Positions 14,887 to 16,698 of a stretch of DNA of 29,510 bases are shown here, piece after piece. The translations under genes were made by a program, and so were the position numbers. Source of the stretch: an uncultured Oligoflexia bacterium (GTDB taxonomy: Bacteria; Bdellovibrionota; UBA1018; CAZQUK01); contig CAZQUK010000004.1 in NCBI GenBank assembly GCA_964596435.1, positions 1 to 29,510 of the forward strand. The letters are read 5' to 3'. The notes beneath the pieces were generated by a model. It saw nothing but the letters and a program-made list of their open reading frames with translations, was not told the DNA's origin and ran no database searches. The first letter of the stretch is position 1, and the number at the start of each line of letters is the position of its first letter.

Positions 14887-16698
14887 ATGTCAAACGCAAA
14901 AGATATAAATGTAATTATTGCAACTGATTGTGGCAGCACAACAACAAAGGCAATTTTAATTGAAAGAATTGGAAATGAATTTCGTCAAACTTTTCGTGGC
15001 GAGGCACCAACTACTGTTGAGGCCCCGTTTGAAGATGTTACAAAAGGTGTTCTGAATTCCATTCAGGAAGTTGAAGAACTTTCCGGGCGCAAGATGCTTG
15101 ATGGCGAAAAAATAATAATGGAAACAAGTAGTGAGAATGGTAAAAAAATTGGCGTTGATGCTTACATTTCAACAAGTAGTGCAGGTGGTGGACTTCAAAT
15201 GATGGTAGCCGGTGCTGTAAAGTCAATGACCGCAGAAAGCGCTCAGCGCGCAGCTCTAGGTGCTGGTGCAATTGTTATGGATGTTCTTGCTTCAAATGAT
15301 AAGCGCCTACCGCACCAGAAAATTGAAAGGATCCGTCAATTGCGACCGGATATGATTTTATTATCAGGTGGTACAGATGGCGGTACAATTTCACATGTTG
15401 TTGAGCTTGCAGAATATATTGCCGCCGCAGATCCAAAACCGAGACTTGGCATTAGTTATAAACTCCCAGTATTATACGCCGGAAACGTTGATGCTCGTCA
15501 GAATATTAAGGATGTTTTGCAGGAAAAAATGGAACTTGTTATCACAGATAACTTAAGACCAACACTTGAGCGCGAAAACTTCATGCCTGCCAGACAGGAA
15601 ATTCAGACACTGTTTCTGGAACACGTTATGGCGCAGGCACCTGGCTATAAAAAATTAATTGAAATGACAACAACTGACATTATGCCAACACCTGCAGCCG
15701 TTGGTCTAATTATGCAAATCATTGCAAAAAAACATGGAATAAATTTAATGGGGGTCGATATTGGCGGTGCCACAACGGACGTGTTTTCTGTTTTCGGAGA
15801 GGTTTTCAATAGAACAGTTAGCGCAAATTATGGCATGTCATACAGTATTTCAAACGTGCTTGCAGACGCAGGCCTTAAACGAGTAATGCGTTGGCTTTCT
15901 TTTGACGTTAACGAAAAGGAAGTACGCGACAGAATTAAAAATAAAATGATACGTCCAACCACTATTCCACAAACACTTGATGCACTTAAGTTAGAACAAG
16001 GAATAGCAAGAGAGGCGCTTCGTTTGTCTTTTGAACAACATAAGCTGCTTGCTGTGAGCCTTAAGGGTGTGCAACAGGAAAGAACAATTGCTGAGGCTTT
16101 TACCCAGTCAGAATCCGGTCAATCCATTGTTAACATGATGGAGCTTGATATGATTGTCGGTAGTGGTGGAGTTCTTTCGCACGCGCCAAGAAGAAACCAG
16201 TCAATGTCGATGATGATTGATTCTTTCCAACCTGAGGGCATTACATTTATTTCGGTTGATAGTATTTTTATGATGCCACATCTTGGTGTGCTTACAAATG
16301 TTAACAAACAAGCTGCAACAGAAGTATTTGAAAAAGACTGTATGGTTTATCTTGGAACCTGTGTTGCTCCTGTTGGTTCTGCAAAGTTTGGCACTAAGGT
16401 TATGGATTATAAAATTAAAATGGGACAAACCAGTATTAACGAAACTATTAATTTTGGGGAATTAAAATTTTATAATTTGAGCTTAAACGAAACTGCAGAA
16501 ATAGAACTTTGCCCAATGCGCGGATTTGATGTTGGGCGTGGAAAAGGAAAAACTCATAAAGGAGTTGTAAAGGGCGGTGTTGTTGGCCTTGTAATTGATG
16601 CCAGGGGGCGGCCAATAAAATTCCCGGATGATGAAGCGCACAGAAAAGAAAAAGTTATTGCCTGGAACAAGGAAATGAACCTTTATAGTGAATATTAA
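14887..16698 (+). CDS. glmL: GlmL/MutL (glutamate mutase L)-like ASKHA-fold ATPase with C-terminal extension
   Basis: ATDCGSTTTKA (phosphate 1), SSAGGGL, LLSGGTDGG, GVDIGGATTDVFS (phosphate 2), VGSGGVL (adenosine). Family call from motif recall; function here unknown. Confidence 0.85.
   Translation: MSNAKDINVIIATDCGSTTTKAILIERIGNEFRQTFRGEAPTTVEAPFEDVTKGVLNSIQEVEELSGRKMLDGEKIIMETSSENGKKIGVDAYISTSSAGGGLQMMVAGAVKSMTAESAQRAALGAGAIVMDVLASNDKRLPHQKIERIRQLRPDMILLSGGTDGGTISHVVELAEYIAAADPKPRLGISYKLPVLYAGNVDARQNIKDVLQEKMELVITDNLRPTLERENFMPARQEIQTLFLEHVMAQAPGYKKLIEMTTTDIMPTPAAVGLIMQIIAKKHGINLMGVDIGGATTDVFSVFGEVFNRTVSANYGMSYSISNVLADAGLKRVMRWLSFDVNEKEVRDRIKNKMIRPTTIPQTLDALKLEQGIAREALRLSFEQHKLLAVSLKGVQQERTIAEAFTQSESGQSIVNMMELDMIVGSGGVLSHAPRRNQSMSMMIDSFQPEGITFISVDSIFMMPHLGVLTNVNKQAATEVFEKDCMVYLGTCVAPVGSAKFGTKVMDYKIKMGQTSINETINFGELKFYNLSLNETAEIELCPMRGFDVGRGKGKTHKGVVKGGVVGLVIDARGRPIKFPDDEAHRKEKVIAWNKEMNLYSEY

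Follow-up and report, generated by a model that had tools for sequence, protein, structure and literature searches.

A GlmL/MutL-family ASKHA ATPase with a conserved partner protein and a probable role in a DUF6754-containing membrane module

Introduction

What would a GlmL/MutL-family ATPase do in a locus that encodes no B12-dependent mutase? This question is raised by MutL603, a 603-aa protein of the ASKHA fold that is encoded in a 29,510-nt stretch of DNA from an uncultured Oligoflexia bacterium (contig CAZQUK010000004.1; the whole stretch is referred to here as the window). A figure legend (PMC4682846, Fig. 4) describes GlmL as a reactivating chaperone of glutamate mutase. Homologues of MutL603 are labelled "glutamate mutase L" or "methylaspartate mutase" in thousands of database entries, and such labels imply a capacity for glutamate fermentation that is seen in none of the genomes we tested. 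The original prediction, made from the letters of the window, described MutL603 as an orphan, considered labels of this kind to be wrong and proposed that its subfamily has another job, either as a motor or chaperone for an adjacent complex or as a hydantoinase-like enzyme.

Here, we find that the labels on the homologues are indeed misleading, while the description as an orphan is refuted by a set of conserved partners in the window: a soluble protein (BSH381), a small protein with one hydrophobic stretch (m92) and a block of membrane proteins. We are highly confident that MutL603 is a member of this module and is not linked to B12, and we place at roughly 55% the probability that it acts as an ATP-driven switch or chaperone subunit of a membrane complex.

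Results

MutL603 and BSH381 as a conserved pair

All proteins of the window were compared with 80 related loci from species-representative genomes. The gene directly after that of MutL603 encodes BSH381 (Table 1), which follows the ATPase in 71/80 loci, with four of the other nine loci stopping at a contig edge. When 1.84 billion cluster representatives were searched exhaustively, 3045 relatives of the ATPase were recovered, and among the best 150 representatives at 50% identity, 46 combine the ATPase and a BSH381-like region in one protein of ~900-1050 residues. A 995-residue fusion (P0124) aligns to BSH381 end to end (380 residues, 46% identity), and the named fusions, which come from Cloacimonadota and Ozemobacteraceae, are likewise labelled "glutamate mutase L". 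Because the two proteins are neighbors almost everywhere and fused in many lineages, this comparison shows MutL603 and BSH381 to be what is, by all appearances, an obligate pair that acts as one unit. Two longer proteins in the search (P0136, 1332 aa; P0126, 1304 aa) carry ~700 extra residues N-terminal to the ATPase, where one has a Peptidase_M1 domain and the other a bacterial TSP3 repeat; each is either a real fusion or a gene-calling error.

The predicted structure of BSH381 (predicted local distance difference test score, pLDDT, of 89.7) is resolved by all-against-all structure comparison into three parts: residues ~16-150 form a barrel-sandwich hybrid, residues ~152-296 a swivelling domain of beta/beta/alpha type, and residues 312-376 a tail that is KOW/SH3-like. 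Gly, Phe, Thr, Arg, and Pro are the residues found to be invariant in the swivelling domain, with no histidine among them. The hairpin of the hybrid barrel has no conserved lysine, and thus, a biotin or lipoyl arm is unlikely.

A conserved membrane block

Relatives of m92 are found in 68/80 loci, nearly all of them directly upstream of the ATPase and on the same strand. The remaining members of the module are four membrane proteins, the DUF6754 subunit, m211, m286, and m204. In Nitrospirota, Planctomycetota, Latescibacterota, Gemmatimonadota, and some Oligoflexia, the genes run co-directionally in the order m92, ATPase, BSH381, DUF6754, m211, m286, m204. In the window and in two loci of the Bdellovibrionales/Bacteriovoracaceae (L012 and L015), the membrane block is inverted, with m92 at its far end, and in a further locus (L013), it lies upstream and is divergent. 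The separation of the two halves of the module by three unrelated genes (PAP2 family, PilZ, and DapF) is observed in this window only. The window holds every part of the module, that is, a 600-aa PF13941 protein with a C-terminal domain, an adjacent BSH381, m92, and the four-gene DUF6754 block.

The DUF6754 subunit consists of a signal or membrane helix, a variable outer domain, a membrane helix, the DUF6754 core, and a final membrane helix. The outer domain is short in the window and reaches ~1000 residues in some Planctomycetota, where these large N-terminal outer regions have no Pfam match. Two of the planctomycetal loci have a ~350-aa gene inserted between the ATPase and BSH381 (L097:724-1794 and L098:8382-9422), and the one that was scanned, from L098, encodes a PD40 beta-propeller (TolB-like) protein. 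The DUF6754 subunits of both of these loci have N-terminal regions of ~1000 aa without a Pfam match, and L097 has two DUF6754 genes.

The co-occurrence of DUF6754 (PF20539) and PF13941 was examined across 121 Planctomycetota genomes. Both families are present in 32 genomes and neither in 83. Two genomes have DUF6754 only, with both matches on short contigs, while four have PF13941 only, including one true GlmL, one sub-threshold match, and two genes that are at contig ends or fragmented. The ATPase is therefore also present in 32 of the 34 genomes with DUF6754. In 14 control model genomes, we observe neither PF13941 above its cut-off nor DUF6754. Taken across genomes, these patterns show a functional tie, as read from sequence, between the ATPase-BSH381 unit and m92 together with the four membrane proteins.

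Relation to B12-dependent mutases

MutL603 matches PF13941 (MutL) over the full model (427.5 bits against a gathering cut-off of 27 bits, E 7.6e-128, residues 10-485, model positions 1-450 of 450). It does not reach the cut-offs of the more specific models: the NCBIfam model for GlmL (NF040745) gives 234.8 bits against an equivalog cut-off of 475, the Or-4 model (NF040744) gives 215 bits against an equivalog cut-off of 600, and the glmL_fam model (TIGR01319) gives 174 bits against a subfamily cut-off of 204. In a maximum-likelihood tree of 62 ASKHA cores, in which the GlmL rows are proteobacterial only and clostridial GlmL and Or-4 are not included, the longest internal branch splits eight mutase-linked GlmL sequences from the 54 other rows with a support of 100 in the Shimodaira-Hasegawa-like approximate likelihood ratio test, and MutL603 falls inside a clade of ~600-aa proteins with a support of 99. 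A tree of the PF13941 family had been suggested as a check by the original prediction, and MutL603 stands apart from mutase-linked GlmL in it.

The genome checks gave a similar picture. The source genome (a 3.3-Mb assembly of 411 contigs, 90% complete) has a single PF13941 gene, and we find in it neither PF06368 (GlmE) nor PF09043 (KamD/OraE type), the PF09043 search having been made without a positive control. The same two results, with the same limit on PF09043, were obtained for five genomes of 3-8 Mb with close relatives of MutL603, including the complete genome of Ca. Brocadia pituitae. The positive control was E. coli O157:H7 Sakai, where PF13941 picks out the 462-aa GlmL, encoded between glmS and glmE, and PF06368 picks out GlmE beside it (E 1.5e-214). 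GlmE is present in two of the 121 Planctomycetota genomes, neither of which is among those with the high-scoring 600-aa type of PF13941 protein. In one of these two (G204), which is without DUF6754, GlmE lies ~90 bases from a gene for a PF13941 protein that is short (439-aa frame) and scores 102 bits (G204:C22:277550-279759). This PF13941 gene, the only PF13941 gene that adjoins GlmE in the 121 genomes, is part of a true GlmL-type arrangement and provides an internal contrast within the phylum. The proposal that the subfamily has a job other than with glutamate or ornithine mutase is thus borne out by the sub-cut-off model scores, the separate clade, and the searches for GlmE and KamD/OraE, in which neither was found.

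The statement that no B12 mutase lies nearby holds for the contig of the window but not for the genome as a whole. The B12-binding family PF02310 has 15 matches in the source genome, none of which is on this contig. One is the 1171-aa MetH, and another is a 1087-aa IcmF-type fusion of B12-binding, MeaB G-protein, and methylmalonyl-CoA-mutase domains, which is encoded on contig C166 (L095:968-4231, minus strand) beside an acyl-CoA dehydrogenase gene. No other B12 mutase was found in the genome; the fusion is unlinked to MutL603 and contains its own MeaB chaperone. The 13 further matches are open frames of 433-550 aa and, judged by size, are probably B12-binding radical S-adenosylmethionine (SAM) enzymes.

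Sequence and predicted structure of MutL603

The open reading frame of MutL603 is genuine: it starts with ATG and is preceded by the ribosome-binding site AAGGTAG. As had been noted at the outset, all three ASKHA nucleotide motifs are intact: the phosphate-1 loop DCGSTTTK (residues 14-21), the phosphate-2 loop DIGGATTD (291-298), and the adenosine loop GSGG (425-428). When 28 homologues drawn from several phyla are aligned, the loops show no variation and identical residues occupy ~200 of the 603 positions; MutL603 is ~68% identical between phyla. With these invariant motifs, the protein would be expected to bind and hydrolyze ATP. The AlphaFold model (mean pLDDT of 71.6) has an ASKHA fold, and its structure matches include FtsA (13.8), PilM (12.8), a benzoyl-CoA-reductase-type subunit (12.4), EutJ (11.3), DdrA (11.0), and acetone carboxylase beta (10.8). 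Since many ASKHA proteins match at similar scores, the modelled fold by itself singles out no mechanism. A PDB sequence search with the whole of MutL603 gave no match. Rfam has no match in either the window or the 258-nt leader, which folds no better than its shuffles (z 0.87) and contains a GC-rich word that is not repeated.

Compared with E. coli GlmL (462 aa), MutL603 has 141 additional residues, and it carries a beta-rich C-terminal domain beyond the Pfam model. The original prediction had correctly noticed such an extension but put it at ~130 aa, whereas it comprises 118 aa, modelled with pLDDT above 90. It had also described the protein as ending at GGVVGLVIDARGRP; this motif in fact occupies residues 563-576 and is followed by 27 residues, which include the helix (583-596) that comes after the seven strands. 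Conserved motifs in the alignment of the extension are P.R..D.G.G.G, GGvvGl..D.RGRP, and W...LYP. The domain has no Pfam family, a PDB profile search gave no match, and an Atlas search returned matches within its own family only. It is unrelated to the domains of BSH381, and no part of E. coli GlmL aligns to it significantly. Its profile does match the fused ATPase-partner proteins at the corresponding place (hhalign 98.7%), and by BLAST, it matches cluster representatives of ~600 aa. On these two grounds, we regard the domain as a mark of the clade to which MutL603 belongs and of the tested fusions.

A putative ATP-driven switch and its alternatives

Of the two jobs originally proposed, a motor or chaperone for the adjacent complex is favored by the synteny across multiple phyla, the fusion to BSH381, and the co-occurrence with DUF6754, while the hydantoinase-like enzyme is the weaker of the two, given the sub-cut-off score for PF01968 and the lack of a HyuB-type partner. 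For a switch or chaperone, we envisage that ATP binding and hydrolysis at the ASKHA site would change how the ATPase relates to BSH381, with the clade-specific C-terminal domain as the probable element that would couple the two proteins. BSH381 could dock on the cytoplasmic face of the membrane block via its hybrid-barrel and SH3/KOW modules, in the way that NqrA/RnfC and NdhS/PsaE dock on their complexes, and its swivelling domain would be the moving element that relays the change. ATP turnover may in this way drive or gate a conformational change of the membrane complex, for which the variable outer domain of the DUF6754 subunit would suggest a task on the envelope side. At slightly less than even odds, the pair could power an ATP-driven inner-membrane machine of a new class, one that uses an actin fold and not an ABC, AAA+, or P-loop motor. 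We hold just as tentatively that such a machine would have a four-subunit membrane complex, would carry out envelope work or move a substrate, and would occur in well over 10 phyla and in no model organism.

Several observations weigh against a switch or chaperone of this kind. In the Brocadiaceae, the two halves of the module are unlinked, and in Ca. Brocadia pituitae, they lie ~3 Mb apart, with both retained. Physical contact of the soluble pair with the membrane block is something that we infer from gene order and co-occurrence, and the use of the C-terminal domain as a docking site is a guess, based on a domain modelled only within the whole chain. The model of MutL603 is weak at residues 98-167 and 222-251, where pLDDT is below 50. 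Finally, the combination of high conservation with a patchy distribution could be due in part to recent horizontal transfer.

Among the alternatives, it is unlikely that MutL603 and BSH381 form a two-part ATP-dependent enzyme, be it hydantoinase-, oxoprolinase-, carboxylase-, or kinase-like or one that phosphorylates the swivelling domain of BSH381. In that case, the phosphoryl group would be passed on as in phosphoenolpyruvate-utilizing enzymes, and the membrane block would be a matching transporter or acceptor. The very high conservation of the ATPase is typical of core enzymes, acetone carboxylase beta is among the structure matches, and there is a weak similarity to Hydantoinase_A (PF01968). 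However, this last match extends over 38 residues only and, at 20.7 bits, is under the cut-off of 22.9, and no HyuB-type partner is found in the window or in the related loci, the genome not having been searched for PF02538. The lack of an invariant histidine in the swivelling domain and of a lysine to carry a biotin or lipoyl arm likewise argues against such an enzyme, as does the fact that no metabolic gene is conserved next to the module.

We consider it more doubtful still that MutL603 is an actin-like scaffold of the FtsA, PilM, or MreB type, which would organize or anchor the membrane complex, possibly with ATP-dependent polymerization and with m92 or BSH381 as its tether. Although the small hydrophobic protein whose gene immediately precedes that of the ATPase in most phyla recalls the binding of PilN by PilM, there is no sequence-family match to FtsA, PilM, or MreB, and filaments are not known for the closest sequence relatives, GlmL and Or-4. 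Very improbable, in our view, is a role in trans as the reactivase of a cobalamin enzyme, with the IcmF-type mutase, MetH, or the B12-binding radical-SAM-like proteins as clients. The founding member of PF13941 is described as a glutamate mutase chaperone (PMC4682846, Fig. 4 legend), and the genome does contain 15 B12-binding matches and one acyl-CoA mutase, but this mutase is on another contig and has its own MeaB chaperone domain, the 80 loci show no conserved B12 gene in the vicinity of the ATPase, and the presence of the ATPase tracks DUF6754 and not GlmE.

Distribution and significance

In the phylum to which the source genome belongs, that genome is the only one of 151 sampled to have DUF6754 or a full PF13941 gene, and a Phycisphaerae genome is among the sources of the closest relatives of the ATPase (76-82% identity). 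Because of this rarity and of the near relative in Phycisphaerae, the module was probably acquired horizontally in this phylum. Carriers of the module include nitrifiers, anammox bacteria, and many uncultured lineages, and a conserved, predicted ATP-using membrane module in such organisms represents a sizeable gap in bacterial cell biology. Among the papers searched, we found none on DUF6754, PF20539, PF13941, or TIGR01319, and GlmL is mentioned as a mutase chaperone only in the one cited above. The seven-gene module fits no described system; its ATPase has a known fold, within whose family it makes up a distinct clade. For heterologous expression and structure determination, the module is made suitable by its compactness and by the existence of natural fusions.

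Gene content of the window

The features of the window are collected in Table 1. Within the inverted block, m134 is found in only one of the 80 loci (L012), and its gene overlaps that of m92 by 8 nt. The PAP2 family gene after BSH381 looks co-transcribed with it and has no counterpart in the 80 related loci, which marks it as a lineage-specific addition; this neighbor may hint at a link to lipids or may mean nothing. The PilZ-domain protein and DapF, encoded between the two halves of the module, are not conserved beside it elsewhere. The tightly packed genes at the end of the window point to an anaerobic aldehyde/alcohol route that is unrelated to our findings on MutL603.

Table 1. Positions of the module genes and of neighboring features in the window (loci are counted among the 80 related loci; membrane topology is from hydropathy).
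Feature	Start	End	Strand	Description
MutL603	14887	16698	+	603-aa GlmL/MutL-family ASKHA ATPase; ASKHA core at residues 10-485
C-terminal extension of MutL603	16342	16695	+	Residues 486-603, outside the PF13941 model; seven strands and one helix
BSH381	16722	17852	+	376-aa partner, directly after MutL603; GGAGG 8 nt before ATG
PAP2_3/PAP2 family protein	17877	18806	+	309-aa membrane protein; start lies 24 nt downstream of BSH381
PilZ-domain protein	18823	19581	-	Possible cyclic di-GMP receptor
DapF	19762	20571	-	
Inverted block	20590	24593		Membrane block with m92 at its far end
m92	20590	20868	-	Small protein with one hydrophobic stretch
m134	20861	21265	-	Small protein with two predicted membrane helices; lineage-specific
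m204	21284	21898	-	Polytopic membrane subunit; 34/80 loci, at the end of the co-directional block
m286	21900	22760	-	Membrane subunit (helix, globular domain, helix); 36/80 loci, fixed order
m211	22783	23418	-	Polytopic membrane subunit; 36/80 loci, fixed order
DUF6754 subunit	23418	24593	-	PF20539 at 362.8 bits; 41/80 loci
Metabolic gene cluster	24777	29428	-	HAD hydrolase, Fe-alcohol dehydrogenase, tungsten-type aldehyde:ferredoxin oxidoreductase, stand-alone class I glutamine amidotransferase

Comparison with known systems

When compared to known systems, MutL603 is closest to GlmL/MutL (NF040745; PF13941), with which it shares the Pfam family, the ASKHA fold, and the phosphate and adenosine loops; identity to the GlmL of E. 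coli O157 is ~29% over the first 320 residues. GlmL, however, is a protein of ~460 aa without the C-terminal beta domain and is encoded between glmS and glmE, whereas MutL603 has this domain and no mutase neighbor, reaches half of the equivalog cut-off, belongs to a clade separate from GlmL, and is tied to BSH381 and the DUF6754 proteins. Or-4 (NF040744) is likewise a PF13941 relative and has a core of similar length, but the score of MutL603 against its model is well under the cut-off (215 versus 600 bits).

No protein of the module is recognized by PADLOC, which has no match for any of the eight proteins submitted, and therefore, the module is not a catalogued defense system. PilM-PilN and FtsA are actin-fold systems that dock on membrane machines, yet they have no sequence homology to MutL603, their partners differ, and PilM and FtsA are without the extra domains of MutL603 (the GlmL-type insert and the C-terminal beta domain). 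For BSH381, the points of comparison are the N-terminal barrel-sandwich hybrid of NqrA/RnfC and the SH3-like peripheral subunits NdhS/PsaE.

The DdrA-DdrB reactivase and EutA have no sequence-family match with MutL603, and for DdrA, the structure score is the 11.0 given above. In DdrA (2D0O structure), a single chain holds both the ASKHA ATPase and an inserted swivelling domain. The client of DdrA-DdrB is a soluble B12 enzyme, whereas the proposed client of MutL603 is a membrane complex. MutL603 may thus resemble its reactivase-type relatives, GlmL and DdrA, in its action while serving a client in the membrane.

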